Program-made: the position numbers and the translations under genes
Shown here: positions 28,476 through 49,847 of the stretch, one piece after another
Layout: each line of letters opens with the position of its first letter
Numbering within the stretch: the first letter of the stretch is position 1
Notes under the pieces: generated by a model
Databases searched by the model: none
What the model was told of the DNA's origin: nothing
Seen by the model: the letters and a program-made list of their open reading frames with translations, nothing else
Assembly: GCA_040905865.1 (NCBI GenBank)
Contig: JBBDQU010000005.1
Span: forward strand, 105,368 to 169,367
Direction: 5' to 3'
DNA length: 64,000 nt
From: Alphaproteobacteria bacterium
GTDB taxonomy: Bacteria; Pseudomonadota; Alphaproteobacteria; UBA8366; GCA-2717185

Positions 28476-30263
28476 TTAGGAGGGCGAAATACCGATGGCG
28501 ACCGCGCCCAGCGCGGCCGCGCGGGAAGCGGGATCCCGTATCTTTCGGGCGGCCCGAATTGCCAGTTCCACCTTGCCGATTCGGGCCGCCTCCTGCGCGA
28601 CCAGCGTGAGCGACCGGTTGCGCGGCGTCTGGCTCAGGCGCGCCTCGGCAACAACATCCGTATCGGGAATGCGCGACGCCGTGTTAAAGGCCTCCAGCAG
28701 CCTGTCGGAAGCCAGCAGCGCCTCGACGATCCGGGCGACTGAGCGCGGATAATCCGGATCGCCGGATTTTCCCCAGGTGATCCGCGATGCCGCGTCGATA
28801 ACCTGGGTTGCCTTCTCCTTGTCGGCGCTTTGCGCATGCGCCCGCGCCAGTAGCGTGAGCAGGCGTACCCGGCCCAGCCCTTCGGGCAGCGAGTCGATCA
28901 GGTTCCGCGCCCGTTCGAACAGGGCCTGCGAGGTTTCGGGATCGCCAACGAGTATCTGCGTATCCAAAACCTCGTTGAGCGCCTGTTCCTGCAGGTCCGG
29001 ATCGGACGGTTCCCGCACGGATTCCAGCGCACGGGCCAGCAGGGCGCTGGCTTCCGTATGTTCACCGCGTTTGCCCGTGGCGAGCGCCACCTGTGCGAAT
29101 ATAATTCCGCGCAGACCCAGATAGGGGATGTAATCGGTCAGTTTAAGGGCTTCGGAATATTTTTCCTGTTCCAGGAGCACATGGCCCATCTGGGCCAGCG
29201 CCTCCGCCTGTTCCCGTTTCTTGCGGATCAGGCCGGCTGTCTTGAACGCGTCCGCGAGTCGGCCGGTGCGGGCCTGTTCCACGACAAGGTGGGTCAGCAG
29301 GCTGTACCGCAACGTTTCTTCCTCGATCCCGGTTGCGGTTTCCACGGCAAAGGTGAACAGCGTGACAGCGGCATCCATATTGCCCTTTTCGCCGATGGCG
29401 CGGGCGACGGAACCGAGCGCCCGGACCCGGCGCTCGGGATCGGCGATGGAGCGGACCAGCACCATGGCGCGGGTCTGGTCACCGGCCTCGGTCTCCGCGG
29501 CAGCCAGTTCAGCCAGCGCCTGTTCGCGGCCTGTGAATTCGCTCTGCAGGATTATGCGGCGGGCTTCGCCCAGAGTCTTGTCCGACTGCTTGGCGTCGCC
29601 GAGTCGGGTCTGCGCTTCGCCGATGATCAACAGCAGCCGGGCGACTTCGGCCTCGTCGTCCTTGATCGCCCTTGTCTGTCGCGATGCTTCGATCAAAGCG
29701 GCCTTGTTGCCTTTCGAGTTCTTGTCATGCGGCGACGGACGACCGATTTCGAGCAGGGTTTCAATACGCAGCTTCCTGTCGCGGATCAGTTTTGTCGCCG
29801 CGACGGCCCCGGCTTCATCGCCCAGGGCATTGCGGCGCACTGCAATTTCGCGGATGAGCTTTTCCGTTTCGGGATTGTCCCGTGCCTTGCCGGCGGCGCG
29901 CATGGCGTCGTCCAGCGCGCTCAGCGCCGGCGCCGCGCGTTTCTTTTCGCTCTCGTAATCGGCAAGCTTGATGAGCGACGCCGCCCGCCAGTACCCGTCG
30001 GTAATCCGCCCGAGTTCCCTGGTGGCTTCCTGGGGATCGCCACGGGCGAGTTCGGCCTGAACCAGCCCGGACAGCGCTTCGCCCTGTTCTTCCGGCGTTT
30101 CCAGCGACAGTGCCGCCAGGCGGATCAGGATGAAGGGGTCCTTGCGCGCCTCCTCGCTGATTGCGTCAAGCTGCGCCACCGCCGGGAGGGCGGTTGCAAT
30201 CAGGCACAGCGCGACCGCGGCGCTACGCAGTATCGAAAACGCGGCTGAAGATCGTATCGACAT
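28476..30263 (-). CDS. secreted TPR/HEAT-like helical repeat protein, unknown function
   Basis: ATG at 30263 gives the signal peptide MSIRSSAAFSILRSAAVALCLIATALPAVAQ. The rest is Ala/Leu/Arg/Glu-rich helical repeats. It overlaps the purB 3' end by 41 nt. Confidence 0.7.
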   Translation of the reverse strand: MSIRSSAAFSILRSAAVALCLIATALPAVAQLDAISEEARKDPFILIRLAALSLETPEEQGEALSGLVQAELARGDPQEATRELGRITDGYWRAASLIKLADYESEKKRAAPALSALDDAMRAAGKARDNPETEKLIREIAVRRNALGDEAGAVAATKLIRDRKLRIETLLEIGRPSPHDKNSKGNKAALIEASRQTRAIKDDEAEVARLLLIIGEAQTRLGDAKQSDKTLGEARRIILQSEFTGREQALAELAAAETEAGDQTRAMVLVRSIADPERRVRALGSVARAIGEKGNMDAAVTLFTFAVETATGIEEETLRYSLLTHLVVEQARTGRLADAFKTAGLIRKKREQAEALAQMGHVLLEQEKYSEALKLTDYIPYLGLRGIIFAQVALATGKRGEHTEASALLARALESVREPSDPDLQEQALNEVLDTQILVGDPETSQALFERARNLIDSLPEGLGRVRLLTLLARAHAQSADKEKATQVIDAASRITWGKSGDPDYPRSVARIVEALLASDRLLEAFNTASRIPDTDVVAEARLSQTPRNRSLTLVAQEAARIGKVELAIRAARKIRDPASRAAALGAVAIGISPS

Positions 30264-31521
30264 GTCTGGTGTGATATTCAAGGTCGAACAGGGATTCCAG
30301 GGTTTCGGCTGTCAGGTAATTGCCGATTTCGCTATCTGCCTTGAGCTGGTCGAGGAACGACAGGTGTTCTTTCCAGGCTTCCATGGCATTGCGCTGAACG
30401 ACCCGGTAGGCGTCCTCGCGGCTCATGCCGGCCTGGGTCAGTTCCAGCAGGACGCGCTGCGAATTGTGCAGGCCGCCCATCTGGTTGAGGTTGCGCTCCA
30501 TCTGCTCGGGGTAGACGACCATATTGTCGATCATTCCGGTAAGCCGGGCGAGGGCGAAATCGAGCGTTACCGTCGCGTCGGGGCCGATCATGCGTTCGAC
30601 CGAGGAATGGGAGATATCACGCTCGTGCCACAGCGCGACATTTTCCAGTGCCGGTGTCACCGCCGAACGAACGATCCGCGCCAGCCCGGTCAGGTTTTCC
30701 GACAGGACCGGATTGCGCTTGTGCGGCATGGCGGAAGAGCCCTTCTGCCCGGGCGAGAAAAATTCCTCGGCTTCGCGCAACTCGCTGCGCTGCAGGTGGC
30801 GGATTTCGACGGCGATGTTTTCGATCGAAGAGGCAATCACGCCGAGTACGGCGAAGAACATGGCGTGACGGTCGCGCGGGATGACCTGGGTCGATATCGG
30901 CTCCACGGCGAGGCCCATCTTGTCGGCGACATGGGCTTCAACCGAGGGGTCGATATTGGCGAAGGTGCCGACGGCGCCGGATATGGCGCAGGTGGCAATT
31001 TCCGCCCGCGCCGCGACCAGCCGGTCCCGGCCGCGCTTGAAGGCCGCGTAATGCCCCGCCAGTTTCAGGCCGAAGGTCGTCGGTTCCGCATGGATCGCGT
31101 GGCTTCGGCCGATGGTGACCGTGTACTTGTGCTCCTCGGCCCGGCGTTTCAGCGCGGCCAGCAGGGCGTCCATGTCGGCCAGTAGAATATCGCTGGCGCG
31201 GGCCAGTTGCACCGCAAGGCAGGTATCCAGCACGTCGGAAGACGTCATGCCCTGATGCAGGAAGCGGGCTTCCTCGCCGACATGTTCCGCGACATTGGTC
31301 AGGAAAGCGATAACGTCATGCCTGGTTTCGCGCTCGATCTCGTCGATGCGGTCGATCTCGAAGGCGCCGCGCTTCCATACCGCCTTTGCGGCGGCTTCGG
31401 GAACGACTCCCAGTTTCGCCTGTGCATCGCAGGCATGCGCCTCGATTTCCAGCCATATCCGGAATTTACTCTCGGGCTCCCAGATGGCCACCATATCGGG
31501 CCGGCTGTAACGAGGAATCAT
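30223..31521 (-). CDS. purB: adenylosuccinate lyase
   Basis: I prefer the start at ATG 31521 (MIPRYSRPDMVAIWEPESKFRIWLEIEAHA...). Contains the GSSAMPHKRNP fumarate-lyase signature. Confidence 0.95.
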   Translation of the reverse strand: MIPRYSRPDMVAIWEPESKFRIWLEIEAHACDAQAKLGVVPEAAAKAVWKRGAFEIDRIDEIERETRHDVIAFLTNVAEHVGEEARFLHQGMTSSDVLDTCLAVQLARASDILLADMDALLAALKRRAEEHKYTVTIGRSHAIHAEPTTFGLKLAGHYAAFKRGRDRLVAARAEIATCAISGAVGTFANIDPSVEAHVADKMGLAVEPISTQVIPRDRHAMFFAVLGVIASSIENIAVEIRHLQRSELREAEEFFSPGQKGSSAMPHKRNPVLSENLTGLARIVRSAVTPALENVALWHERDISHSSVERMIGPDATVTLDFALARLTGMIDNMVVYPEQMERNLNQMGGLHNSQRVLLELTQAGMSREDAYRVVQRNAMEAWKEHLSFLDQLKADSEIGNYLTAETLESLFDLEYHTRHVDTIFSRVFDTA

Positions 31522-31625
31522 GAATACGCTACTCCAGACTTCAGGTTTGCGACGACGCTGCCCTTGCGGGGGCAATTTTCGCCGGACTATAACATAGACG
31601 AAACAGGCATTCGAAAGGCGCAGCA

Positions 31626-32363
31626 ATGGCTACACTGACCGCGGAAGAACTGCAACAGGCGCGAATCGACATGGCGGCGGCGTTCCGCTGGGCGGTTCGC
31701 CACGGGTTGCACGAAGGCATCTGCAATCATTTCAGCCTCGCGGTCGGCGACGACCAGTTCCTGATCAACGGCTATGGCTGGCACTGGTCGGAAATTACCG
31801 CCTCCAGAATTGTCCTGGCGCATTACGATGGCGAAATCATCGAAGGGGACGGCGAGGTCGAGGCGACCGCGTTCTATATCCACAGCCGCATCCACCGCGC
31901 CTGTCCGCAGGCCACCTGCGTCATGCACACGCATATGCCCTACGCAACGGCGCTGACCCTCGTCGAAGGCGGCCGGATCGAACCGATCGAGCAGGGGGCG
32001 CTGCGGTTCCAGAACCACGTCGCCTATGACGATGAATATAACGGTCTGGCGCTGGATTTCGCCGAAGGCGACCGGATCGCGAAAAAGATGGGCAACAAAC
32101 GCGTGATGTTCATGGGCGCGCACGGGGTGACGGTTACGGGTTCGACCATCGCGCGGACCTATGACTGGCTCTATTACCTGGAACGCGCCTGCAAGGCGCA
32201 GGTGCTGGCCCGCTCAACGGGGTTGCCGCTGCGGCGCCTGCCGGACGAGGTGATCCAGGCCACCGTCGACCAGTTCGAAGGCTCGAATACCGACAGCGCG
32301 CCGCTGCATTTCGAGGCGCTGAAACGGGTGCTGGACCGGGACGAGCCCGACTACAGGGATTAG
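31626..32363 (+). CDS. class II aldolase/adducin family protein
   Basis: 245 aa, ..HGLHEGICNHFS..CVMHTHMPYATAL..MGAHGVTVTG... Second of three members of this family in the window. Confidence 0.8.
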   Translation: MATLTAEELQQARIDMAAAFRWAVRHGLHEGICNHFSLAVGDDQFLINGYGWHWSEITASRIVLAHYDGEIIEGDGEVEATAFYIHSRIHRACPQATCVMHTHMPYATALTLVEGGRIEPIEQGALRFQNHVAYDDEYNGLALDFAEGDRIAKKMGNKRVMFMGAHGVTVTGSTIARTYDWLYYLERACKAQVLARSTGLPLRRLPDEVIQATVDQFEGSNTDSAPLHFEALKRVLDRDEPDYRD

Positions 32364-34294
32364 AGGATACCGCGGCTGTAGGAAGGCCGATCCGGCTTCG
32401 GGCCGGGCTGTCCGGTTTGCCCGGCGAAATATTCCGTGCAACTGTCGTTGATGCCCAGGGCATCGAAGCGCATGCGCCAGTATTCCGACGCCGCAAGGCC
32501 GCGGCTGACAATTTCATGGCGTCTTTCCGCTAATTCCGGATGACCCAGTTTTCGCTCGCAGATGCCGAGGAACAGTGCGGCCAGCGGATGTTCGGTGCCC
32601 ATCCGCTGCACCAGTTCATCCAGCATCGCCTTTTTCTTGCGCAATTTGTGCGGCCGCGTTTCGGCGATGATCGGACGGTAGTTGATGAGGTAATCCACCG
32701 TGAACCACACATCGACCATCTGGTCGCGCCGCGGGATGTAGTCGGGGGTCTCTGAAAAAGGGTTGAAGAACGGGGCGGCTTTTTTCTTTTCCGCCAGTTC
32801 GCGCTGGCGCACGGAACCGGTCACGCCGACGGAAAAACTGCCCGCCTTGTTTGGATTTTTACCGTTTGCGGCTTTGGTGACCGTTTCGCCATACTGATCC
32901 TGTTGCAGCATCATCTGCTCCACCGGCGTGCCACCCATCGGCATGACGATCTGGCTTGGATACCAGTCCAGATCCATCTTGCCGGCGAGATCGACCGTAT
33001 CGGCAAGCGCTGCGACAGTTTCCGACGGATAGCCGACCAGCAGGAAGCCCTTGGTGAAGATGGTCGGAAATTCCGTCAGCAGATTGGCGGCGCGCAGATA
33101 GGTCCGGATATTGCCGGGCTTGTTCATGTTGCGCAGGATTTCGGCGTTGCCCGATTCGACGCCGATATTGAAGCCGATGCATCCGGAAGCAACCGCCGCC
33201 TCCAGCAATTCATGGGTCATGGCGGCGGCGATCACGCCGTTGGAGGCATCCCAGGTGACGGGAAGCTTGCGGTCCGCGATTTCCCGGAACATGGCAATCG
33301 TCGCGCTGATATCGAAGAACAGGTCATCGTCCAGCCACATGATGTGGCGGACGCCGTAATTCTCATGGAGGCGCTGAATTTCATCGACGACGGACTGTCC
33401 CGACCGGACCCGCACGCCTTTGCCGGAGACCGTGCGCACGCTGCAGAAGGTGCAGGCGGCCCGGCAGCCACGACGGCTGATAGCGGTTGCCGACGGGGTG
33501 CCGGCGTCGCGCAGGAAGGTATAGGCGCCGATAGTGCCGTATTTGGCGTAATCGGCGATGGGCAAATCCTTGTAGTCGGGCGCGATGTCGAGCGCCGGCG
33601 GAATCGCGGCCGGGGTGGCGACGGGGCCGCTGGCGGGGTCGAGCGTCGCGACGCCTTTCAGGCCGATACCGGCGTCCCTGCCATTGGCGGCGTCGAGGAA
33701 ATGAACCAGGGTCTGTTCCGCCTCGTTGAACAGGACAAAATCGATTTCAGGAAGTTCGTTCAGGACCTTGTCAACCATCAGCGATGCATAGACGCCGCCG
33801 GAAATGATCGGAATATCCGGATGGATGCATTTCAGATGCCGCGCGATGGCGGAAAATTCGGCGGCGCAGTTTTCGAACATGCCGCTCAACCCGATCACAT
33901 CGGGCCGGAATTCCTCTATCTTCGCTTCCAGGGGGACCTTCCATACATCGAAGTCGAATGCGCCGCCCGCCTGTTCCGACGCCTTGCGCAGGACTTCGAA
34001 CTGCAGGTCGATGATATCGGCGGTATATCCGGCGGCTTCGACGCAGCGAACCAGGACACCTGGCCCATAAGGGGGAAAGCACGGATATCGGCCCTGGACA
34101 GCCACATCAATGGAGAAATGGTTACGGTCGATTTCGGGAACGGCGATCATCAGCAGGCGCTGCACCGGTTTCCCAAAGACGCCGGCCATGCGCTGCCGGA
34201 CGAACGGTTCATCTTTTTTCAGAATCGAAACGGGGCTTATGTGTTCTGATTTTGCCGCAACAGCCATGGAAAGCGCCTTTCGGAAAACGGGCAT
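32360..34294 (-). CDS. cobalamin-binding-domain radical SAM protein (class B), 644 aa with about 160-aa C-terminal extension
   Basis: N-terminal B12-domain-like RLLMIAVPE...PPYGPGVLVRCVEAAGYTADIIDLQ. CxxxCxxC cluster motif GCRAACTFCSV. The start is uncertain (M1 34294, M10 34267 or M36 34189). Confidence 0.85.
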   Translation of the reverse strand: MPVFRKALSMAVAAKSEHISPVSILKKDEPFVRQRMAGVFGKPVQRLLMIAVPEIDRNHFSIDVAVQGRYPCFPPYGPGVLVRCVEAAGYTADIIDLQFEVLRKASEQAGGAFDFDVWKVPLEAKIEEFRPDVIGLSGMFENCAAEFSAIARHLKCIHPDIPIISGGVYASLMVDKVLNELPEIDFVLFNEAEQTLVHFLDAANGRDAGIGLKGVATLDPASGPVATPAAIPPALDIAPDYKDLPIADYAKYGTIGAYTFLRDAGTPSATAISRRGCRAACTFCSVRTVSGKGVRVRSGQSVVDEIQRLHENYGVRHIMWLDDDLFFDISATIAMFREIADRKLPVTWDASNGVIAAAMTHELLEAAVASGCIGFNIGVESGNAEILRNMNKPGNIRTYLRAANLLTEFPTIFTKGFLLVGYPSETVAALADTVDLAGKMDLDWYPSQIVMPMGGTPVEQMMLQQDQYGETVTKAANGKNPNKAGSFSVGVTGSVRQRELAEKKKAAPFFNPFSETPDYIPRRDQMVDVWFTVDYLINYRPIIAETRPHKLRKKKAMLDELVQRMGTEHPLAALFLGICERKLGHPELAERRHEIVSRGLAASEYWRMRFDALGINDSCTEYFAGQTGQPGPKPDRPSYSRGIL

Positions 34295-36458: not shown

Positions 36459-37327
36459 CGCGACGGCATATCGCTGAAAATAACGGTCTTGTCCTCGGTC
36501 AGTGCCTGTCGGCGGTCGGCTGGGTTCAGAATACCGTGCCGGAACAGGAAGCGGGTATCGAGGAACTGCCGATGACCGATACCGCCGGCGCGGGGATCGC
36601 GGTGGGAGCCGCGTTGACCGGGCGCAGGCCGATTTTCATCCTCCGGTTCCAGAGTCTGGTATGGCTGAACGCCAGTCCGCTCGTGAATCATGCCGCCCGT
36701 GTGAAAGCCATTTTCGGCTATGGTTGCCCGCTGTTCATCAGGGCTTCCGGCGATGAGGGGCATTCCATGGGCCCGGTGCATTCGGGCGCCCACCACGCGC
36801 CATTCATGTATGTTCCCGGATTGACCGTTGTCGCGCCCATGACTCCGGGAGAATACCGGGATATCTGGGCGCATTTCATGGCCCATGACGATCCCCTGTT
36901 CGTCAGCGAACACCGGCTCAGCTACAACAATACCGAGGAACTGCCGGACCGGATCGAGGATGGCGCCGATATCACCCTGTTTGCCGCCTCCGCGAGCCGG
37001 TTTTCCCTCGCGGAAGCGGCGGCGCGGCTGCGGGAGGATGGCATTCGGGTCAACATCGTCCATCTGGTCTGGCTGAAGCCGCTGAACGTGCCGGAAGCCG
37101 CCCTTGCCGCGCTGCGCGCCAGCGGCAATGGTCTGGTCCTCGATTCCGGGTTCGAAATCTGCGGTGCATCGCGCTCCATCGCCTATGAACTGACCCATCT
37201 GACAGGCGTCAGGGTCCACGCCCTCGCATTGGAAGACCGCCCGTCCGGGGTTGCAAAAAGGCTGGAGAACCTGTCGCCCCAGCCGGAACGAATTGTAAAG
37301 GAAGTCAGGAATATACTCGCTGAATGA
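36422..37327 (+). CDS. E1 component beta-subunit-like (transketolase pyrimidine-binding and C-terminal domains)
   Basis: ..IEELPMTDTAGAGIAVGAALTGRRPIFILRFQS.. GAGGAA lies upstream of the ATG. Overlaps the alpha-like gene by 37 nt. Confidence 0.8.
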   Translation: MGETVADTIRELTRRHIAENNGLVLGQCLSAVGWVQNTVPEQEAGIEELPMTDTAGAGIAVGAALTGRRPIFILRFQSLVWLNASPLVNHAARVKAIFGYGCPLFIRASGDEGHSMGPVHSGAHHAPFMYVPGLTVVAPMTPGEYRDIWAHFMAHDDPLFVSEHRLSYNNTEELPDRIEDGADITLFAASASRFSLAEAAARLREDGIRVNIVHLVWLKPLNVPEAALAALRASGNGLVLDSGFEICGASRSIAYELTHLTGVRVHALALEDRPSGVAKRLENLSPQPERIVKEVRNILAE

Positions 37328-38829
37328 ATGTATTGACTGACATCGATGTCGTCATGGTGACGCCGCCCAGCAGGCTCGCGGTGTATCAGGGCCTGTCGAA
37401 CGACCTGGCGGCCATCGAGCCGCCGGTCTGGTCGGGCTTGATCGCGGCGTACCTGCAACAGAGGAATTACAAGGTCGTCATGCTGGATGCGGAAGCCAGG
37501 GGGCTGAACCATGCGGACACGGCGGCAGAGATCGCCGCGTTGAAACCAGGGCTGGCGGTGTTCTGCATCTACGGGCAGCAGCCCTCGGCATCGACCCAGT
37601 GCATGCCGGGCGGCTCCATCACCTGCGCGCGCCTCAATGAAATTGCCGGCATCCCGAGCCTTGCGTTGGGAACCCATCCATCGGCGCTGCCGCGGCGTAC
37701 GTTGGAGGAGGAACCGTTTTCCTTCGTCTGTCAGGGCGAGGGGCCGCGCACGGTGGAGGCCCTGATCCGGGTGCTCCGGGACGGCGGCGACCTCGCGAAC
37801 GTGCCGGGTCTGTGGTACCGGGATGAAGCGGGGGCCATACACGGCAACAGGCCGGCGGCGAATATCGCGGATCTGGACAGTGAACTGCCGCGCCAGGCTT
37901 GGGACCTGCTGGATATGACGCAGTACCGGGCGCACAACTGGCATTGCTTCCATGACCTGGGCAGCCGCGGCAGCTACGCGTCGATCCAGACGAGCCTTGG
38001 ATGCCCCTTTCGCTGCGAATTCTGTTGTATCAACACGCCGTTTGGCGGCAACGGCGTCCGGAACTGGAGTCCCGAAAACGTCGTCGCGCAGATCGACGAA
38101 CTGGTCACCCGCTACGGGGTAAGGAACATCAAGATTCCCGACGAAATGTTCATCCTGAACCGGCGGCATGTGGCGGGAATCTGCGATGTCCTGATCGAAC
38201 GCGATTACGGCCTCAATATCTGGGCCTATGCGCGGATCGACACGTTGCGGGAATCGATGCTGGCGAAGCTGAAAGCGGCGGGCTTCAACTGGCTGGGGCT
38301 GGGCATCGAGTCCGCCAGTTCCTCCGTCCGTGACGGCATGGCCAAGGGAAGTTTTACCGATGACAATATCCGCGACGTTGTCCGCATGGTCCGCGATCAC
38401 GGAATCGCGGTCGGCGCGAATTACATCTTCGGCCTGCCCGACGATACAATGGACAGCATGAACGAAACGCTGGCGCTGGCGATCGAGCTGAATACGGAAT
38501 GGGCCAATTTCTATTGCGCGATGGCGTATCCGGGCTCCCCGCTTTACGAGGAAGCGAGGGCGAATAAATGGCCGCTTCCCGACGATCCGGGTGGGCCGGG
38601 CTGGATCGGTTATTCGCAGCTCGGTTACGACGCGATGCCGTTGCCGACCATGGCGCTAAGCGCCCGTCAGGTTCTTGAATTCCGCGACCATGCCTTCGAC
38701 CGGTACTTCACCAACCCGGCCTATCTGGCCATGCTGGAAGACAAATTCGGCTCCGAGGCGGTCGGCCACGTCAAACAGATGACGGCGCATCGGCTGAAAC
38801 GGCGCCTGCTCGAGACGCCGGCTGCCTGA
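37324..38829 (+). CDS. cobalamin-binding-domain radical SAM protein (class B), 501 aa
   Basis: B12-domain-like N-terminus (VVMVTPPS..PPVWSGLIAAYLQQRNYKVVMLDAE). CxxxCxxC motif GCPFRCEFCCIN. The ATGA overlaps the E1-beta-like stop. Confidence 0.88.
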   Translation: MNVLTDIDVVMVTPPSRLAVYQGLSNDLAAIEPPVWSGLIAAYLQQRNYKVVMLDAEARGLNHADTAAEIAALKPGLAVFCIYGQQPSASTQCMPGGSITCARLNEIAGIPSLALGTHPSALPRRTLEEEPFSFVCQGEGPRTVEALIRVLRDGGDLANVPGLWYRDEAGAIHGNRPAANIADLDSELPRQAWDLLDMTQYRAHNWHCFHDLGSRGSYASIQTSLGCPFRCEFCCINTPFGGNGVRNWSPENVVAQIDELVTRYGVRNIKIPDEMFILNRRHVAGICDVLIERDYGLNIWAYARIDTLRESMLAKLKAAGFNWLGLGIESASSSVRDGMAKGSFTDDNIRDVVRMVRDHGIAVGANYIFGLPDDTMDSMNETLALAIELNTEWANFYCAMAYPGSPLYEEARANKWPLPDDPGGPGWIGYSQLGYDAMPLPTMALSARQVLEFRDHAFDRYFTNPAYLAMLEDKFGSEAVGHVKQMTAHRLKRRLLETPAA

Positions 38830-39842: not shown

Positions 39843-40068
39843 AGCCTGTCTCCCCGTCTGTGTCCGGGGATAAGCCTAGCAGAATGCGGCGGCGGCAGGG
39901 TAGGGTCGACGGATCATTGTGGCGGTCGGGAACAGGTGTTTCAAATGGAACGGCGCAAAATCGGGTTGTGCGGTTCTGCCGCGCCCGTTACGGTTCCCAG
40001 TCTGTCGGCGAAGGTGCATGCAATGGTCCGATAAATATTTGAATATCAATGACGTAGGGGACATTTTC

Positions 40069-41868
40069 ATGACGGACAGCAATGAGCTCAATGGCGGCCA
40101 GGTTATCATCGATTATCTGATCCGCGAGGATGTGCCCTATGTCTTCGGGCTTTGCGGGCACGGCAATATCGGGCTGATTGATGCGATGTACGAGCGGTCG
40201 GACGATATCAAGACTATCTCCGTCCATCATGAAAGCGTCTCCGGCTTCATGGCCGATGTCTATTACCGCGTCTCCGGCCAGGCGACCGCGACCTTCACCT
40301 CCTGCGGTCCCGGCTCGGCGAATATGCCGATCTGCCTCGCCAATGCCTTCTTCGATTCCGTGCCGTTCCTGGCGATCACCGGCAATGTGCCGACCAGCCA
40401 GTTCAACCGGGGCGCCTTCCAGGAAACCTACCGCCATTATCAGGCCGATTTTCCGTCCACCGTGCAGGCCTATTGCAAACGCGTCTACCAGCCGACCCGC
40501 GGCGAACAGGTGCCGCTGATGGTGCGGCAGGCCTGGAAGACGATGGTCACGGGCCGGCCCGGCCCGGTGGTGCTGGACGTGCCTTTCGATATCTTCAAGG
40601 AATCCGCCGCGGAAACCCCGGATCCGAAGGAATGGAGCGCGAATATCTCCTGCCGCTGCGGCGCCGATCCCGAAGGCGTCGAGAAAGCGGTCGATATGCT
40701 GCTGTCCGCCGAGAAGCCGGTGATCGTCGTGGGGCAGGGGGTGCGCTATGGCGGCGCCGCCGAGGAACTGAAGGCGCTGGCCGAACGGCTGCAGATTCCG
40801 GTGGCGTCCTCGGCGAGCGGCCTTGGCGCCCTGCCGGTCGAGCACCCGCTGTCGCTGGGCCTCGTACAGCGCGGCGGCACCTATCAGGCGAACCATTCCT
40901 GCCGTCAGGCCGATGTGCTGCTGGCGCTTGGCGTGCGCTTCGATGACCGGACGTCCAGTTCGTGGATACCGGGCTATTCCTTCACAATCCCGCCCTCCAA
41001 ACTGATCCATGTGGATATCGATCCGGAGGAAATCGGCCGCAACTATCCGGTCACCCTGGGGCTGATGGCGGATGTGCGCACCTTCCTGCGCCAGATTCTG
41101 GGCGAACTCGATCGGCGCGGATATTCCGGGGGACCGACTCCGGTGAGCCGGAAATGGCTGGCGGAGATCGATACCTACCGCGCCAAATGGGACGCCTTTA
41201 TTGCGCCGGGCTTCACCGATGATTCATCGCCCATCAATCCGCAGCGCGCGGCCGTGGAAATCGACAAGGCGCTGCCGGAAGACGCGATCCTGGTCAGCGA
41301 TATCGGTGTGCATCACAACTGGCTGCTGCAGTTCTGCAAACCGACCCGGCCGGATTCGCTGATCGGCTCCATGGGCTTTGGCCCGATGGGATTTGGCGTC
41401 GCCGGCGTGCTGGGCGCCAAACTGGCCGCGCCCGACCGGCCCGCCGTTTCGGTCTGTGGCGATGGCGCGTTCTTCATGCATGCGAACGTGCTCGGCACGG
41501 CGGTTGAGTACAATATCCCGGCCGTCTGGGTGGTCTGGAACAATTACGCCTATGGGTCGATCCGGGGGCTGCAGCGCGGCTATCTGGAAAGCCGCGAACT
41601 GGCGACCGATTTCCACCACCCGGAAACCGGCAAGCCCTACAATCCGGACTTTGCCGCCATGGCGCGGTCGGCGGGGGTCGAGGGCGTCAGCATCGACCGG
41701 GCGGGCGATCTGGGCGATGCGATCCAGGCCGCGATTGCCGCCAACAAACCCTTTCTGATCGACGCCAATATTAGCGGCGACCTGAATCCGCCGGGCGCGG
41801 GTGTGTGGGAACTGCCGGGGCTGGGCGTCAACAGGCCGGCGATCGGCGAGCGCTTCGTGCCGAAATAG
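40069..41868 (+). CDS. thiamine-diphosphate-binding enzyme of the acetolactate-synthase/IolD-like superfamily
   Basis: I prefer the start at ATG 40069 (MTDSNELNGGQVIIDYLIREDVPYVFGLCGHGNIG..). C-terminal TPP motif VCGDGAFFMHANVLGTAVEYNIPAVWVVWNN. Confidence 0.85.
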   Translation: MTDSNELNGGQVIIDYLIREDVPYVFGLCGHGNIGLIDAMYERSDDIKTISVHHESVSGFMADVYYRVSGQATATFTSCGPGSANMPICLANAFFDSVPFLAITGNVPTSQFNRGAFQETYRHYQADFPSTVQAYCKRVYQPTRGEQVPLMVRQAWKTMVTGRPGPVVLDVPFDIFKESAAETPDPKEWSANISCRCGADPEGVEKAVDMLLSAEKPVIVVGQGVRYGGAAEELKALAERLQIPVASSASGLGALPVEHPLSLGLVQRGGTYQANHSCRQADVLLALGVRFDDRTSSSWIPGYSFTIPPSKLIHVDIDPEEIGRNYPVTLGLMADVRTFLRQILGELDRRGYSGGPTPVSRKWLAEIDTYRAKWDAFIAPGFTDDSSPINPQRAAVEIDKALPEDAILVSDIGVHHNWLLQFCKPTRPDSLIGSMGFGPMGFGVAGVLGAKLAAPDRPAVSVCGDGAFFMHANVLGTAVEYNIPAVWVVWNNYAYGSIRGLQRGYLESRELATDFHHPETGKPYNPDFAAMARSAGVEGVSIDRAGDLGDAIQAAIAANKPFLIDANISGDLNPPGAGVWELPGLGVNRPAIGERFVPK

Positions 41869-42760: not shown

Positions 42761-44101
42761 ATGCGATTTGACGATGCCGCGCGGTATGTCATCGACGATC
42801 CGGACAGCGGGACCTTCAAGGTCCATCGGGACGTTTTCGGCGACGCGGCCCTGTTCGATCTGGAAATACGCCGGATATTCGAGGGCGGCTGGGTCTATGT
42901 CTGCCTGGAAAACCAGATCCCGGAACCGAACGATTTTTTCTGCACGAAAATCGGGCGCCGCTCCATCATCGTGTCCCGCGACGAGGATGGCGTGCTGCAC
43001 TGTTTCTACAATACCTGCCGCCACCGGGGCGCCGCGATCTGCCATGTGGAGCGCGGCAACAAGAAGTACCATGTCTGCGACTATCACGGCTGGGCCTATG
43101 ATTCCTCTGGGAAGAACTTCGACATCAAGGACCGCAAGGCGGGCGGCTATGCCAAATCTTTCGACGCCTGCGACCATGACCTGTTGCCCGTGGCGCGGTT
43201 CGACAGCTATGCGGGACTGCTGTTCGTCAGCCTGAATCCGAACGTGCCGTCACTGTCCGACTATCTGGGCGAGGCAAAACAGTTCCTTGATCTGGTCATG
43301 GACCAGGGTCGCGACGGGATGGAACTGGTGCCCGGCCGCACCAACTACACCTATGCCGGAAACTGGAAGCTGCAGCTCGACAACAGCCTCGATTTCTATC
43401 ACCTGACGTCGACCCATCGCAGCTTCGTCAATATCGTGAACCAGCGTGAAGCGGGCAAAAGCGCCAACCGGCAGGTGACCTCGCCGAATTTCCAGCGCCG
43501 TTTCGCCATGCCGGCCGGCATGTTCAACCTGGGCAACGGCCATGCGGTGATGTGGGCGGACCAGCCCAACCCGGAGACCCAGCCGCTCTGGGGCGAGATC
43601 GAGGAAGTGACGGCACGGGTCGGGGAGGTCCGGGCGAAATGGATGGTGCGGGCGCGCAATCTGACGATTTTCCCGAACCTGCAGATCGCGGATTCGACCT
43701 CGCTGGTGCTGCGCACGATCACCCCGCTCGCCGTCGACAAGACCGAGATGGTGATGTACAGCCTCGCGCCCGTCGGGGAGGCGGATGACCTGCGTTACAC
43801 CCGGATCCGGCAGCACGAGGATTTCTTCAATGTCTCCGGACTGGCGACGCCGGACGACACGATCGTGTATGAGGACTGTCAGGCCGGGTTTGTCAGCGCC
43901 GATGACGACTGGCTGCAATGCTTCGAACGCGGCATCACCGCCCTGCAACCCGGCGCCAACGAACACGCGCGGGAACTGGGCATTTCGCCGGTCGCCAGCA
44001 TGGTGGGTAAATACGCCATGCAGAACGAGGTGAGTTACCATTCCGCCTATCAGGAATGGGTGAAGCGGCTGTCCGGCGCCTTGCCGCTCGCCGCGGAGTG
44101 A
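42761..44101 (+). CDS. Rieske non-haem-iron oxygenase, alpha subunit
   Basis: Rieske motif CRHRGAAICH...CDYHGWAY. Mononuclear-iron motif DNSLDFYHLTSTH. Confidence 0.9.
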   Translation: MRFDDAARYVIDDPDSGTFKVHRDVFGDAALFDLEIRRIFEGGWVYVCLENQIPEPNDFFCTKIGRRSIIVSRDEDGVLHCFYNTCRHRGAAICHVERGNKKYHVCDYHGWAYDSSGKNFDIKDRKAGGYAKSFDACDHDLLPVARFDSYAGLLFVSLNPNVPSLSDYLGEAKQFLDLVMDQGRDGMELVPGRTNYTYAGNWKLQLDNSLDFYHLTSTHRSFVNIVNQREAGKSANRQVTSPNFQRRFAMPAGMFNLGNGHAVMWADQPNPETQPLWGEIEEVTARVGEVRAKWMVRARNLTIFPNLQIADSTSLVLRTITPLAVDKTEMVMYSLAPVGEADDLRYTRIRQHEDFFNVSGLATPDDTIVYEDCQAGFVSADDDWLQCFERGITALQPGANEHARELGISPVASMVGKYAMQNEVSYHSAYQEWVKRLSGALPLAAE

Positions 44102-44115
44102 CGGTTTTGGACCAG

Positions 44116-44610
44116 ATGGACCTGCTGCGCGCGGGCGCGGACCTGCTGGCGCGCGAGGCGCTGTATCTCGATGAGCGGCGCTGGGATGAATGGATCGCGC
44201 TGTACTGCGAGGATTGCGAGTTCTGGGCGCCAAGCTGGCTTAGCGAGGATACGCTTTCCGCCGACCCGGACCGGGAAATCTCGATGTTCTATTTCAGGGC
44301 CCGCGGCGGGCTGGAGGACCGGGTCTGGCGTATCCGGTCGGGGCAGGCGGCGGCGCTGACCCCGATGCCGCGCACATCGCACCAGGTCAGCAACATGGTT
44401 CTGGACGGTGCAGCGACCGGGTGCGCGATGACGGTAAAATCCGCCTTCGCCTGCCATGTCTATATGATCCGCAACAAGACCCAGCATGTCTTCTTCGGAC
44501 GCTACGAGCATGGCCTGGTAAGAATTGACGATGAATGGCGCATCAGGCGCAAGAAGATCACGCTGATGAACGATTTCGTGCCGTCGCTGCTGGATGTTTT
44601 CTGCGTCTGA
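44116..44610 (+). CDS. aromatic-ring-hydroxylating oxygenase beta subunit (SnoaL/NTF2-like)
   Basis: ..LLAREALYLDERRWDEWIALYCEDCEFWAP.. is typical of beta subunits. The alternative GTG start at 44098 would overlap the alpha stop as GTGA. Confidence 0.85.
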   Translation: MDLLRAGADLLAREALYLDERRWDEWIALYCEDCEFWAPSWLSEDTLSADPDREISMFYFRARGGLEDRVWRIRSGQAAALTPMPRTSHQVSNMVLDGAATGCAMTVKSAFACHVYMIRNKTQHVFFGRYEHGLVRIDDEWRIRRKKITLMNDFVPSLLDVFCV

Positions 44611-44638: not shown

Positions 44639-45613
44639 ATGTTGTTGAAAGGATTCCGCATGACCGCATTGGATGATGCGCTGGATTTTGCCGCCGAGCA
44701 TGATACGCCGATCCCCTATCGGCAGCGGATCAGGGACTATTACCTGGCGCTGGGTTACGAAAAACCATACCGCTGGGCGAACTATGTCGATGTGCCGTTC
44801 ACGCCGCTGAAGAAGCCGCTGTCGGAATCGACCGTGGCCCTGGTGACGACGTCAGCGCCGTACCAGCCGGACAAGGGCGATCAGGGACCGGGCGCGGCCT
44901 ACAATTCCGCCGCCAAGTTCTATCGGGTCTATACCGACACGACGGATCATGTGCCGGATCAGCGGATTTCCCATATCGGCTATGACCGACTGCACACCAC
45001 TGCAGAAGACATGAACAGCTGGTTTCCGTTGGCGGCGCTGCACGATGCGGCGGCGGCCGGACGGATCGGCGCGGTGTCGAAGCGCTTCTACGGGGCGCCG
45101 ACCAACCGCAGCCAGAAGACAACGGTCGAACAGGACTGCGTCGAACTGCTGGAACGGATACGCGAGGACGGGGCCGATACGGCCGTCATTGTCGCTACCT
45201 GACCGGTGTGCCACCAGACCGTGAGTCTGGTTGCCCGCTACCTCGAAGAACACGGCATTCCCACCGTCATCATGGGCTGCGCCAAGGATATCGTCGAATT
45301 TGTCGGCGTGCCGCGTTTTCTGTTCAGCGACTTTCCGCTGGGCAATGCGGCGGGCAAGCCGAACGATCCGGCATCGCAGGCCGCGACGCTGGAACTGGCG
45401 CTGAAGGTGCTGGAGACCGCGCCCGGGCCGCGTACGACGGTTCAGTCGCCGCAGCGCTGGAGCAACGATCCGGACTGGAAGCTGGATTTCAGTAATCTGG
45501 AACGGATATCGCCCGAGGAACTTGAAAAGCGCCGCCGGGCGTTCGACGAACAGAAGGAAATCGCCCGCAGGAAACGGGAAGCCGAAGGCATCGGGAGCAA
45601 CGCAGCGGAGTAA
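44639..45613 (+). CDS. GrdB-family (glycine/sarcosine/betaine reductase component B-like) protein, probable selenoprotein with Sec encoded by TGA 45200-45202
   Basis: Track ORFs 44639-45202 and 45206-45613 are in the same frame and are separated only by TGA plus CCG. Read-through gives a 324-aa protein with ..GADTAVIVAT-U-PVCHQTVSLVARYLEEHGIPTVIMGC... There is no SD before the GTG at 45206. A hairpin follows the TGA (next feature). Confidence 0.7.
45210..45234 (+). other. putative bacterial SECIS-like hairpin
   Basis: It starts 8 nt after the UGA. Pairs 45213-45219 (ACCAGAC) with 45225-45231 (GTCTGGT), plus two outer pairs across one mismatch. The 5-nt apical loop CGUGA contains G-U and lies 18-22 nt after the UGA. 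Confidence 0.55.
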
Positions 45614-45623
45614 CCGGGTACCC

Positions 45624-46817
45624 ATGAGCAAACCATTCTCGGGCGTGAGGATCCTGGATTTTACCCAGGTCTTCGCCGGCCCGTTCAGCAGTTTCCAGCT
45701 TGCCCTGTTGGGGGCGGATGTCATCAAGGTCGAACGCCCGGAAGGCGAGGATTCCCGCTTTACCCCGCTCAGCAGGGAATGGGCGGATATGGGCATGGCG
45801 CCATCCTGGATGGCGGTCAACGCCAACAAGCGCAACCTGACCCTCGATCTGAAGCACCCGACAGCGGTGGAAATCGTCAAGCGGCTGGTCGCGGATGCCG
45901 ATGTGGTGATGGAAAATTTCCGCCCCGGCGTCATGGACCGGCTCGGTATCGGCTATGACGACCTGTCGAAGATCAATCCGCGGCTGATCTATTGCGGCGT
46001 CTCCGGATTTGGACGGGAAGGGCCGCAGAAAAACGCGCCCTCCTATGACGGCAAGATTCAGGCGCTCAGCGGCGTCATGTCGATTACCGGGCATGAAGGG
46101 GACGGGCCGCTGCGCGCGGGCTTCGCGGTCTGCGATGCGCTGACGGGCATGACGGCGGCCTTTGCCGTTTCCAGCGCGATCTACCAGCGCACCCACACGG
46201 GCAAGGGGCAGCTGGTCGATGTGGCGATGTTCGATTCAACGCTCAGCTTCCTGTCGCCGACGGTGGTCGATTACACGGTCGCGGGGCACCGGCAGCGCCA
46301 GTTCGGCAATCAGGCGATCAGCCGCAAGCCCACGGCCAACCTGTTCCGGGTGAAAAACGGGTACCTGCTGCTGGCTGTGAACAATGAGGGCCAGTACATC
46401 AAACTGGCCAACACCCTGAAACGGCCGGAACTTTATGAGGACGCGCGCTTCCGGGACTGGCCGTCACGGATCGAGAACGAGCCGGCCATGCGGGAAATCA
46501 TCGAGGACGCGCTGAGCGAGAACGACGCCCAGACCTGGGAGAAAATCCTGGAGGAGGGCGGCGCCCCCTGCGCCAGCGTCCGCACCATCGACGAAGCCGT
46601 CGCGCATCCGCAACTGGAATACCGCGACGTGCTCCAGACGGTCGACGGGCCGAAGGGGCCGATGACGATGATCGGGTCGGGCTTCAAGATGGCGCATGGC
46701 GGCGGCAGCATCGACCGCCCGCCGCCGACCATCGGCCAGCACACGGATGAAATTCTCGCCGACGCCGGCTACAGCGCCGAAGAGATCGCGAAGTTCCGCG
46801 CGGACAAGGTGCTGTAG
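45624..46817 (+). CDS. family III CoA-transferase (CaiB/BaiF)
   Basis: Start at ATG 45624. MSKPFSGVRILDFTQVFAGPFSSFQLALLGADVIKVERP is the classic N-terminus of this family. Confidence 0.9.
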   Translation: MSKPFSGVRILDFTQVFAGPFSSFQLALLGADVIKVERPEGEDSRFTPLSREWADMGMAPSWMAVNANKRNLTLDLKHPTAVEIVKRLVADADVVMENFRPGVMDRLGIGYDDLSKINPRLIYCGVSGFGREGPQKNAPSYDGKIQALSGVMSITGHEGDGPLRAGFAVCDALTGMTAAFAVSSAIYQRTHTGKGQLVDVAMFDSTLSFLSPTVVDYTVAGHRQRQFGNQAISRKPTANLFRVKNGYLLLAVNNEGQYIKLANTLKRPELYEDARFRDWPSRIENEPAMREIIEDALSENDAQTWEKILEEGGAPCASVRTIDEAVAHPQLEYRDVLQTVDGPKGPMTMIGSGFKMAHGGGSIDRPPPTIGQHTDEILADAGYSAEEIAKFRADKVL

Positions 46818-46882
46818 GGCTCGGGGCGGAAATTGTTGGCAAATTTTGTCAAATGGTATTCTCCGGTCAAGGAGATGGTATT

Positions 46883-47116
46883 ATGGCCACGATGAATGTT
46901 TCCCTGCCCGACCCGATGAAGCTGTGGGTGGAAGCGCAGGCGCAGACCGGACGCTACAGCAATGCGAGCGACTATGTCCGCGATCTGATCCGCCGGGACC
47001 AGGAACGCGCGGCGCAGATAGCACAGCTACAGTCCCTGATTACCGAAGGGCTGGAAAGTGGCGTCGCGGAGGATTTCAGCATGGAGGCGATCCAGGCGGA
47101 ACTCGATAGCGTCTAA
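46883..47116 (+). CDS. parD: type II antitoxin, ParD family
   Basis: The ATG at 46883 has AAGGAGA upstream. MATMNVSLPDPMKLWVEAQAQTGRYSNASDYVRDLIRRDQER (RHH/ParD pattern). Confidence 0.85.
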   Translation: MATMNVSLPDPMKLWVEAQAQTGRYSNASDYVRDLIRRDQERAAQIAQLQSLITEGLESGVAEDFSMEAIQAELDSV

Positions 47117-47413
47117 TGTCCGAGTTTCGTGTCAGCAGGCAGGCGCGAGACGATATCCGCGAAATCGGTCGTTATACGCAGGCGCTGTGGGGACGCGTGC
47201 AGCGCCGTATTTATCTATCCAACATGGAAATGCTGTTCCGGAATCTGGCCGGGAATCCGGAGATCGCCCCGGAGCGCCATGAGTTCGATCCACCTGTCCG
47301 GCTATGTCGGTATGGCAACCACCTGATCGTATATCGCTCAGAAAATGACCCGAATTCTGATCGTCAGGGTCCTGCACGAGCGGATGGATATTTCAGCGAT
47401 TCTTGGTGGCTAA
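47116..47413 (+). pseudogene. parE: ParE-family toxin gene with a +1 frameshift in a CCC run (47349-47351)
   Basis: The N-terminal 78 codons look like ParE (..RQARDDIREIGRYTQALWG...GNHLIVYRSEND). The expected C-terminus RILIVRVLHERMDISAILGG* is encoded in the +1 frame from 47351 to TAA 47411-47413. The frame in the track runs on to an unrelated tail. Confidence 0.75.
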
Positions 47414-47455
47414 GCGCGCCTTGGAAGATTTGAACCGGTCTGATCGTCCAGACCG

Positions 47456-48304
47456 TTACGGTTCGAACCGCCGGTTCAGTTCCGCGTTTGAAAAACTGTC
47501 CTTCGCATACCCGAATGTGCCGCCATCGCGCAGTTCTGCCGCCGCGTGCTGCACCAGTTTCAGGCAGGCGCGGGCGAGGCTGCCGCCGATGGAGACGCGG
47601 GCGACGCCGAGTTCCTGCAGTCGGGCCGTCGGCGGCGTAGTCGCCCCGGCGAGGATGTTGAGCGGCCCCTCGACCGCCTGCGCCAGCCGCCCGATCAGAT
47701 CCGCATCCGCGATGCCGGGGATATAGACACTGCGCGCGCCGGCGGCATAGCAGGCATTGCAGCGGGCGACGGCGTCTTCGAACATCGCACCTGTCCGTTC
47801 GCCGCCGGCGATCAGGTAGACGTCGACCCGGGCATTGATGACGAAGGGGATGTCCAGCGCATCCGCGACCTCGCGCCCCGCCCGGATGCGGTCCACGCAA
47901 AGCGCCGGATCCAGCAGGTGCGGTTTCGCGGTACCCACGTCATAGACGCCGTCCTCGATATTCGCGCCGATTGCGCCGGCGGCGATGGCCTGGCGCACGG
48001 TTTCGGCCACGTCGTCCGGCGTCTGCCCGTATCCGCCCTCCATATCCGCCGAAACGGGAATGGAAACCGCATCGGCGCATCGCTTTACCTCGGCGGCCAT
48101 TTCCGCGCGGCTGATCCGGTGCCCATCGGCGAAACCGCGTGAAAAGGCAATCCCGGCGCTGGTGGTGGCGATGGCGGGAAAGCCCGCTTCCGCCAGGATC
48201 AGCGCGCTGCCCGCATCCCAGCAATTGGGCAGGACGAGGATCTCCGGCGCGTGATGCAGGGTCAGGAAGGCCTCGGCTTTCGCTTTTTGCGCGATTTTGT
48301 CCAT
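47456..48304 (-). CDS. isocitrate lyase/PEP mutase superfamily protein (methylisocitrate-lyase/oxaloacetate-decarboxylase-like)
   Basis: Start at ATG 48304 with AGAGGGA upstream. ..LVLPNCWDAGSALILAEAGFPAIATTSAGIAFS.. and ..GANIEDG... Confidence 0.8.
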   Translation of the reverse strand: MDKIAQKAKAEAFLTLHHAPEILVLPNCWDAGSALILAEAGFPAIATTSAGIAFSRGFADGHRISRAEMAAEVKRCADAVSIPVSADMEGGYGQTPDDVAETVRQAIAAGAIGANIEDGVYDVGTAKPHLLDPALCVDRIRAGREVADALDIPFVINARVDVYLIAGGERTGAMFEDAVARCNACYAAGARSVYIPGIADADLIGRLAQAVEGPLNILAGATTPPTARLQELGVARVSIGGSLARACLKLVQHAAAELRDGGTFGYAKDSFSNAELNRRFEP

Positions 48305-48513
48305 GGGTTTCCCTCTTTGCTCCCTGTTTCGCAATACGGATCGGTTTGCCATAGTAACGGATCGGATACATGCCGCGAAAATGGAAACCGGATACAGCCC
48401 GTAACACTGGCTACAGGCAAAAGGATGGGCGTTGCTAAGACGGCGGCCGAAGCATTCGCGGCGCGGCACCGTTAAAGGATATATCCAGGAAACAAGGCAG
48501 AAAGGCGATTTTG

Positions 48514-48969
48514 ATGGCAGGCCTGTATTACGAAGAGTTCGAGATCGGGCATGTTTTCGAACATGCGATCACGCGAACGGTATCGGAGTACGATAATGTC
48601 CTGTTCAGCGCGCTGACGCACAACCCGCAACCGCTGCACCTGGATGAAGAGTTCGCGAAGAAAACCGAATTCGGGCAGCGGCTGGTCAACAGTCTGTATA
48701 CGCTGGGACTGATGATCGGCGTCTCGGTGGACGATACGACCCTGGGCACGACCATCGCCAATCTGGGTATGACCGATGTGAAATTTCCCAAGCCGGTATT
48801 TCACGGCGATACCCTGCGCGCCACCACCACGGTGATCGACAAGCGCGACAGTAAATCCCGGCCCAATGCCGGCGTCGTCGTCTTCGAACACCGGTCCTTC
48901 AACCAGCGTGACGAGGAAGTCGCTTTCTGCGTGCGCTCCGCCTTCATGAAGAAAAAGGAAGCCGCATGA
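48514..48969 (+). CDS. MaoC-like (R)-specific enoyl-CoA hydratase/dehydratase
   Basis: [44 protein letters not shown].. hotdog hydratase pattern. Confidence 0.85.
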
Positions 48970-49847
48970 CCCTGCGTTCAATGCTTTTCGTTCCCGGCGA
49001 CAGCGAACGGAAAATGGAAAAGGCGATCACCAACGAAGCCGATGCCCTGATCCTGGACCTGGAGGATTCGGTCTCGCCGGACCGTACGGCGGTGGCCCGG
49101 GGCATGGTGGCGGAGTACCTGTCCGCGCGCGCCGACCGGACGAAACAGCAGCTCTGGGTGCGGATCAATCCGCTGGACACGGACAAGGCAATGCCGGACC
49201 TCGCGGCGGTGATGACCGGCGCGCCGGACGGAATCGTCCTGCCGAAAACCTATTCGGCGAAGGATGCCGTGGCCCTGGCGAACGCCCTGTCGGCGCTGGA
49301 AGCCCGGGACGGTCTGGTGATCGGGTCGACGAGAATTCTGGCGGTAGCGACGGAAACCGCGAAATCGCTGTTCACGCTGAACACCTTTATCGGCGCGACC
49401 GACCGGCTGTATGGCATGACCTGGGGCGCGGAAGACCTGGCGGCGGCGCTCGGCGCCAGCAACAACCGGCTACCCGACGGCAGTTATGACGGCCCCTATC
49501 TGCTGGCCCGGACATTGTGCCTCGCCGCCTGCCGCGCGGCCGAGGTGATGCCGGTGGATACGGTCTTTACCGATTTCCGAAATATCGAGGGGCTGGAGGA
49601 AGAAGCGGGGCAGGCGCGGCGGTCCGGCTTCTTCGGCAAGATGGCGATCCATCCCGACCAGTCGGCGCCGATCAACCGGGCGTTTACGCCGACGGCGGAA
49701 GAAATCGCCCATGCGCAGCGTATCGTCGATGCCTTCGACCGGAACCCCGGGGCCGGTACGATCGGGATCGACGGCATGATGATCGATATGCCGCACCTGA
49801 AGCAGGCGCGCGCGGTGCTGGCGCTTGTGGCGTCGCTGAAGACCTGA
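48966..49847 (+). CDS. HpcH/HpaI aldolase / citrate-lyase-beta-like acyl-CoA lyase (CitE family)
   Basis: [33 protein letters not shown]... The ATGA overlaps the MaoC-like gene. Confidence 0.88.

Follow-up and report, generated by a model that had tools for sequence, protein, structure and literature searches.

Among bacterial selenoproteins, a family named "proline reductase PrdB" (pfam07355) and marked by a UxxC motif, in which U stands for selenocysteine (Sec), has been known since 2005 (Zhang, Fomenko & Gladyshev 2005, PMC1088965; Zhang & Gladyshev 2008, PMC2398784): it was the third most abundant selenoprotein family of the Sargasso Sea, with 42 Sec forms and one cysteine (Cys) form (PMC1088965), ranked among the most abundant in the Global Ocean Sampling (GOS) data, where it had 235 Sec and 110 Cys forms (PMC2398784), and is counted among the selenoprotein families that are most widely spread in bacteria (PMC9312934). 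UxxC is also the motif of PrdB itself (PMC2398784, PMC13188914). The bacterial Sec insertion sequence (SECIS), as modeled for bSECISearch, is a hairpin 16-37 nt from the UGA, with a loop of 3-9 nt, a stem of 4-16 bp and a minimum free energy of -7.5 kcal/mol or lower; a G stands within the first two loop positions and is usually followed by G or U (PMC13188914). The locus described here lies in a 64,000-nucleotide stretch (the window) of an alphaproteobacterial metagenome-assembled genome (MAG; contig JBBDQU010000005.1), in which a TGA at 45200-45202 interrupts a gene at 44660-45613. This TGA is very probably a Sec codon within one gene, whose product would be a UxxC selenoprotein of the GrdB/PrdB superfamily.

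A shared frame across the TGA

Two forward-strand open reading frames (ORFs), 44639-45202, which ends with the TGA, and 45206-45613, which opens with GTG, share one frame and are parted by TGA-CCG only; read through, they give ...GADTAVIVAT-U-PVCHQTVSLVARYLEEHGIPTVIMGCAKD..., with the TGA codon as the first residue of U-P-V-C. The original prediction, made from the letters alone, had placed both ORFs exactly, had given the fused context as VIVAT-U-PVC (...VIVAT-U-PVCHQTVSLVARYLEEHGIPTVIMGC... in the translation) and had remarked that the GTG at 45206 lacks a ribosome-binding site; no Shine-Dalgarno-like sequence is indeed present upstream of it. Its figure of 324 residues for the fusion has to be corrected to 317 codons: the likely start is the ATG at 44660, because a Shine-Dalgarno-like AAAGGA (44648-44653, forward strand) ends 6 nt upstream and because homologues and close relatives begin at this very ATG. 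The gene thus most likely extends, as read from the sequence, from 44660 to 45613 on the forward strand, with the TGA as codon 181 and a TAA stop at 45611-45613. That automated annotation would report fragments was also anticipated: gene callers give 180 + 135 residues at the locus, and callers of the Prodigal type split the gene in this way in every public assembly looked at, so protein databases lack the full-length protein wherever the Sec codon goes unrecognized. In GenBank, a gap in the accession series (MEX2614781, then 783) suggests that one protein is annotated there, and not a fragment of 180, 187 or 135 residues.

What kind of protein is interrupted? In family searches, for which the product was translated with Cys substituted for the TGA, it matches PF07355 (GRDB) with 35 bits against a gathering cut-off of 22 (E = 1.3e-8), although this match stops at residue 180, one residue ahead of the TGA. 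The best-scoring curated model, TIGR04483 (PrdB), covers residues 47-257 (E = 1.3e-29; profile positions 20-224 of 238), TIGR01917 covers residues 51-254, and the GrdB, GrdF and GrdH models together cover residues 41-254; these curated matches run continuously through the TGA at residue 181. Since the family match crosses the TGA, neither half is a complete domain, as had been proposed. By linear mapping, U181 falls at about position 150 of the TIGR04483 profile, which we take to be the Sec position of PrdB. The earlier label "GrdB-family" holds at the level of the superfamily and fails at the level of orthology: TIGR04483 scores 103.3 bits against an equivalog cut-off of 300; TIGR01917, NF040794 and NF040795 (GrdB/GrdF/GrdH) score 44-53 bits against cut-offs of 602-800; and the TIGR01918 subfamily scores 52.9 against 65.45. 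The GrdB-type profiles are covered over positions 212-426 only, and the protein has 317 residues against about 430 in full-length GrdB. To judge from scores below the cut-offs and from the lack of a PrdA/GrdE gene nearby, the gene is a true orthologue of neither PrdB nor GrdB.

Database relatives number in the thousands; in the best 120 of them, all full-length (307-329 residues, 66-75% identity), the column of the TGA is Cys without exception (120/120), within the motif N-C-P-V-C-H-Q, so U falls on the Sec/Cys column. Of the 97 columns with at least 98% conservation (118 or more of these 120 homologues), the window protein retains 95.

Nor is the TGA peculiar to this contig. Species-representative genomes were scanned with a degenerate DNA pattern for U-P-[VI]-C-H-Q...A-R..L-E..G, for which we estimate about 0.02 chance matches, and TGA forms were found at 120 or more loci, all with U-P-[VI]-C-H-Q; 121 TGA forms are compared below. 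Their hosts belong to many phyla and include Alpha-, Beta-, Gamma- and Deltaproteobacteria, Acidimicrobiia, Binatia, Dehalococcoidia, Rokubacteria, Methylomirabilia and others; marine MAGs and single-cell genomes are among them, with exactly the motif U-P-V-C-H-Q, and one TGA form (locus L011) is carried by the complete Reyranella chromosome NZ_OZ257251.1. In every listed locus the frame is open and homologous both before and after the TGA, with a median of 130 codons past it, and Cys forms read through at this point; natural termination or splitting of homologues here is therefore not what is observed. A quick neighbor-joining tree of 193 sequences intermingles the Sec forms with the Cys forms and implies at least 15 switches between the two states, a pattern that, as far as such a tree goes, fits the known repeated exchange of Sec and Cys.

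A close relative of the window protein (P0144) is represented by 21 contigs from independent samples in ENA, JGI and Logan, and the TGA is kept in them; in the six contigs shown (L242-L247), the gene is called as 180 + 130-135 residues in the same operon. Likewise, the 90%-identity cluster of the N-terminal fragment of the window protein holds 12 sequences, all of 157-197 residues. Between the window and this lineage dS is 0.73-0.89, and dN/dS rises from 0.06 upstream of the TGA to 0.175 downstream (dS 0.73); by this measure, purifying selection acts on the downstream part, that is, it is translated. The hairpin that follows the TGA shows, in the same lineage, a compensatory change from C-G to U-A that is coupled to a Val-to-Ile replacement.

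At the residue that precedes the Sec/Cys site (residue 180, codon 45197-45199), the two kinds of sequence differ: Asn is present in 112/120 Cys forms vs 12/121 TGA forms, in samples of different origin and in counts not corrected for phylogeny. In the TGA forms, Leu (38), Val (37), Thr (13), Ser (10), Ala (6) and Met (5) are found instead; the window has Thr. The bias could reflect an activation of the thiol that only Cys needs, or an effect of codon context on UGA decoding.

The hairpin after the TGA

Directly past the TGA and within the coding sequence, the forward strand can fold into a hairpin at 45205-45239: a 7-bp core stem (45213-45219/45225-45231) is extended by two middle pairs (45210-45211/45233-45234) and by four outer pairs (45205-45208/45236-45239), and closes on the apical loop CGUGA (45220-45224), whose conserved G-U, part of a Val codon GUN, would be the expected SelB contact. 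The core stem, the two pairs next to it and the loop had been predicted with exact coordinates, and so had a geometry fit for a bacterial SECIS element: when the published constraints are applied directly from PMC13188914, the 5-nt loop CGUGA with its G followed by U, the 7-bp stem, the 17 nt between UGA and loop and the energy of -17.5 kcal/mol all lie within them. This energy belongs to the 41-nt element 45200-45240, which is more stable than chance would have it (z = -3.09; 0/200 shuffles equally stable). The fold that had been suggested as a check, over the 66 nt of 45195-45260, is unexceptional (z = -0.46); folding of a single sequence therefore offers weak evidence, and the case rests on the comparative data.

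How well is the hairpin kept? Its stem occupies a fixed position in the 121 TGA forms, from +13 to +31 counted from the T of TGA, and 95.5% of the alignment cells are paired, vs 22-32% when the 3' partners are slid. Cells with changes on both sides of a pair number 83, vs 33 +/- 7 after shuffling (0/500 shuffles reach the observed count), and three pairs covary (CG58/UA48, GC105/AU8 and AU83/UA25), although these counts are inflated by the common ancestry of the 120 sequences. For this reason, a control was added with Cys forms, found in a metagenome scan by the same pattern with TGY for TGA; 120 of them were listed. The stem all but disappears from this control: a perfect 7-bp stem is formed by 85/121 TGA forms vs 2/120 Cys forms, and the mean number of stem pairs, of seven possible, is 6.6 vs 4.7 (Mann-Whitney p = 6e-32). 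Codon choices diverge with it. At codon +8, Ser is encoded by AGT in 74 TGA forms and by AGC in none, whereas Cys forms have AGC in 57 and AGT in 11; codon +7 is GUN, which gives the loop its G-U, in 120/121 TGA forms, whereas Cys forms have Val, Ile, Leu, Met, Cys, Ser, Thr and others at this codon. The hairpin is thus conserved, with compensatory changes, in the orthologues that keep the TGA and largely absent from Cys forms; on these comparisons, it is a bacterial SECIS element specific to TGA forms. No SECIS family of Rfam was matched in a gathering search of the whole window or in a permissive search of 45150-45300, and a model of the element seems to be missing from Rfam.

The hairpin also marks a break in one assembly. 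In the Logan sample SRR27977661, the locus is split over two contigs (L001 and L254), one ending at about 45230 and the other starting at 45208, which overlap by about 23 nt exactly within the hairpin; the break could be an inverted-repeat assembly artifact, or could reflect low coverage or strain variation.

Readings of the TGA and its proposed decoding

Could the locus simply be a dead or misread gene? A single base change turns TGC into TGA, the locus is split by gene callers into 180 + 135 residues and its nearest full-length database matches are Cys forms, all of which would suit a Cys-type gene killed by a nonsense mutation or by an assembly or sequencing error. But the TGA is shared by the 21 contigs from independent samples, at a dS of about 0.8 from the window, and by at least 120 species; the downstream half evolves with a dN/dS of 0.175 and contains neither a frameshift nor a second stop; 95/97 near-invariant columns are retained; and a TGA-specific hairpin with codon choices that oppose Cys-form usage is not expected in a dead gene. 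The 21 contigs, dN/dS and the compensatory change together rule out a recent nonsense mutation or assembly error, and inactivation or error of any kind is very unlikely. Even less probable is a truly split gene, in which translation stops at the TGA and restarts at the GTG at 45206 to yield two polypeptides that assemble. The GTG does lie 3 nt past the stop, and translational coupling without a ribosome-binding site does exist in bacteria; here, however, the site is absent before the GTG, the profile match is unbroken over the junction, and in an AlphaFold2 (AF2) model the junction falls between the strand 174-178 and the helix bearing CxxC. A restart at V183 would lose the first redox residue of an invariant CxxC, and the start codon is not conserved: codon +2, limited to GTN or ATN by the scan pattern (R at the first base), is often GTC, GTT, GTA or ATC in TGA forms.

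Two further alternatives concern the reading of the UGA and the origin of the hairpin. The UGA could be reassigned to Trp or Gly, read through by a near-cognate tRNA, or decoded as Cys by a tRNA(Sec)-like tRNA. UGA-C is a leaky context for termination, and a SelB-dependent hairpin would serve a Cys-charged tRNA(Sec) variant equally well. Against this, TGA ends 41 of the 63 predicted genes of the window and is their commonest stop, which excludes a reassigned code; the homologues have an invariant redox Cys at this column, in place of which Trp or Gly would inactivate the site; and the Asn that precedes it in 112/120 Cys forms vs 12/121 TGA forms suggests a residue chemically unlike Cys. A reading of the UGA as anything other than Sec is accordingly held to be highly improbable. 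The hairpin, in turn, might be a mere by-product of the conserved peptide HQTVSLV: HQ[TS]V[SG]L[VI]AR is conserved, which the search pattern imposed in part, and GC-rich coding sequence folds easily. Yet Cys forms with the same or a similar peptide seldom form the stem (2/120 perfect), encode Ser more by AGC than by AGT and show free variation at codon +7; the covarying stem positions were N in the search pattern; and pairs of amino acids switch jointly while pairing is kept (T...S with S...G; an H codon with wobble C goes with V, and one with wobble U with I). Such an origin of the hairpin has hardly any probability left.

Several observations nevertheless weigh against a Sec codon. The wider 66-nt fold is unremarkable, covariation is inflated by ancestry, and the samples behind the Sec/Cys contrast differ in source, TGA forms having come from genomes and Cys forms from metagenomes. 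The window protein deviates at two near-invariant columns, P161V and N180T, both variants being present in other TGA forms. Of the genes for the Sec machinery, selC (tRNA-Sec) may lie within selB in Alphaproteobacteria (PMC8124441). Neither selA, selB, selD nor tRNA-Sec was found within the 64-kb window (ARAGORN; Rfam; Pfam on 20 size-matched ORFs), ARAGORN found no tRNA-Sec on any of the 254 fetched loci, and the literature yielded no selenium-incorporation experiment for this gene or for any aerobic "PrdB-like" member. The Sec machinery of this genome is thus assumed, which is the main caveat: a Sec codon is held to be very probable, and not more than that, because the view of the machinery reaches only as far as the window and the fetched loci.

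If the TGA is a Sec codon, its decoding would follow the established bacterial pathway, from which the mechanism proposed here is taken. Ahead of the approaching ribosome, the mRNA hairpin (core 45213-45231) would present its CGUGA loop, with the conserved GU, to SelB-GTP-Sec-tRNA(Sec); SelB, competing with release factor 2, would place Sec in the A site, and 136 further codons would be translated. When selenium or the machinery is limiting, a truncated product of 180 residues would be expected.

Gene neighborhood, chemistry and described relatives

The gene stands in a tight same-strand row: genes for the alpha (42761-44101) and beta (44056-44610) subunits of a Rieske-type ring-hydroxylating oxygenase lie upstream, beta directly so, and a family III coenzyme A (CoA)-transferase gene (45624-46817; PF02515, E = 1e-118) begins 10 nt after the selenoprotein stop and is followed by a ParD-antitoxin-like gene (46853-47116; PF03693, as called on L001) and a terminator-like hairpin (47181-47206). 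Which of these neighbors belong with the protein family? The conservation of neighbors was assessed by targeted tblastn with the neighbor proteins of the window. The Rieske oxygenase, tried as a candidate, was rejected: its genes are conserved in L242-L247 but in 0/240 more distant loci, and probably share an operon with the selenoprotein gene in this lineage only. The longest ORF of the beta gene (184 residues) overlaps the alpha gene by 46 nt, while GenBank (MEX2614781) and most relatives have 164-167 residues; translation of beta therefore probably begins some 17-20 codons inside this ORF. By contrast, an orthologue of the CoA-transferase (mostly 53-66% identity) is found directly downstream at 16/108 TGA loci and 27/87 Cys loci and also adjoins P0001 and P0035 in otherwise unrelated surroundings; family III CoA-transferase is the only recurrent neighbor of the protein family. 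Its best NCBIfam matches are succinate-glutarate and succinyl-CoA:mesaconate CoA-transferases.

The surroundings are not those of a prd operon. PrdA/GrdE proprotein, GrdA, GrdC, PrdC and other prd or thioredoxin genes were not seen among the neighbors; what is found, besides the Rieske, CoA-transferase and ParD genes, is Aldolase_II (by position in relatives) and PEP-mutase-like, MaoC-like and HpcH-like genes. Without a gene for a PrdA/GrdE proprotein, GrdA or PrdC in its vicinity, the protein is not a demonstrable subunit of D-proline or glycine reductase. The last three neighbors are a phosphoenolpyruvate (PEP)-mutase/isocitrate-lyase-family gene (47456-48469, reverse strand), a MaoC/mesaconyl-CoA-hydratase-like gene (48511-48969) and an HpcH/HpaI citramalyl-CoA-lyase-like gene (48966-49847). 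The gene set within 45624-49847 resembles a module for itaconate/mesaconate-type C5-dicarboxylate degradation and is kept in L242-L247. As for the ParD-like gene, its DNA is about 80% identical to plasmid ParD genes of Leisingera, and no obvious toxin partner was identified.

Farther upstream lie two genes for B12-binding radical S-adenosylmethionine enzymes about 3 kb apart (32360-34294, reverse strand; 37324-38829, forward strand) and, near this pair, genes for a class II aldolase (31626-32363) and a thiamine pyrophosphate-dependent enzyme (39919-41868). The purine genes for PurL (23149-25344) and adenylosuccinate lyase (30223-31626), both on the reverse strand, and an RNase E/G gene (2470-3999) are housekeeping genes, which show that the window is chromosomal and not a plasmid or mobile island; plasmid matches in the window were two and short.

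What might the protein do? In the AF2 model of P0001, a Cys form 75% identical to the window protein (predicted local distance difference test score 82, predicted template modeling score 0.84), C181-x-x-C184 opens the helix 182-197, which follows the strand 174-178; on this model, Sec181 and Cys184 would be placed in the usual geometry of a redox-active pair. Searches by sequence and by Foldseek returned no solved structure alike. By analogy to GrdB/PrdB, the selenol would attack a carbon of the substrate or resolve an intermediate and then form an Se-S bond with Cys184, which an external thiol system would reduce. Because the family III CoA-transferase is conserved and co-transcribed, its presumed link to the selenoprotein points to a carboxylic acid or acyl-CoA as substrate or product, and not to D-proline or glycine. 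Tentatively, then, the protein and its many relatives in aerobic Proteobacteria, Acidimicrobiia, Binatia and other groups might be no subunits of proline or glycine reductase but stand-alone UxxC/CxxC enzymes, free of a PrdA/GrdE partner, that act with the CoA-transferase on a carboxylate or acyl-CoA in a reductive reaction in oxic habitats, a possibility that we would rate somewhat below its negation. Were it so, Asn before Cys, vs Leu, Val, Thr or Ser before Sec, would speak of differing needs for thiol and selenol activation. The literature searched held nothing relevant on the function of PrdB-like or GrdB-like proteins in aerobes, and the family is not mentioned in Mukai 2021; nor did that literature contain the Sec/Cys contrast in SECIS codon usage, the Asn(-1) bias or the CoA-transferase partnership. 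The pairing with a CoA-transferase and the Sec/Cys contrast of the SECIS element offer concrete experimental handles on orphan "PrdB-like" proteins in aerobes, though neither would surprise a specialist.

How, finally, does the locus compare with systems already described? The bacterial SECIS elements, in the bSECISearch model and in E. coli fdhF and fdnG, share with it a hairpin inside the coding sequence just past the UGA, a stable stem and a small loop with G and then U; the sequence of the hairpin is family-specific, and it shows no bulged U like that of the fdhF element. Clostridial PrdB (TIGR04483; Kabisch et al. 1999, cited in PMC13188914) has the same UxxC motif, here U-P-V-C, but the window protein carries about 45 extra residues at the N-terminus and about 60 at the C-terminus, and it is encoded in an aerobic-type alphaproteobacterial MAG instead of a Stickland fermenter. 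With GrdB, GrdF and GrdH, homology extends over their C-terminal half (profile positions 218-423 of 431), and mapping of profile coordinates puts Sec at the equivalent place, as the first residue of UxxC; the N-terminal 200 residues of GrdB are missing from the window protein, however, and it has U-P-V-C-H-Q where UxxCxxC is reported for GrdB (PMC13188914). The environmental "PrdB" family, abundant in aerobic marine communities, shares with it the Pfam family, the UxxC Sec motif and the occurrence of both Sec and Cys forms; these shared features suggest that the window protein belongs to the same subfamily as the Sargasso and GOS sequences. The papers that describe that family name it by its clostridial relative and do not address its function, its gene partners or a family-specific SECIS element. 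The finding thus extends a selenoprotein family that is already known, and widespread, in ocean and soil bacteria by one alphaproteobacterial MAG.

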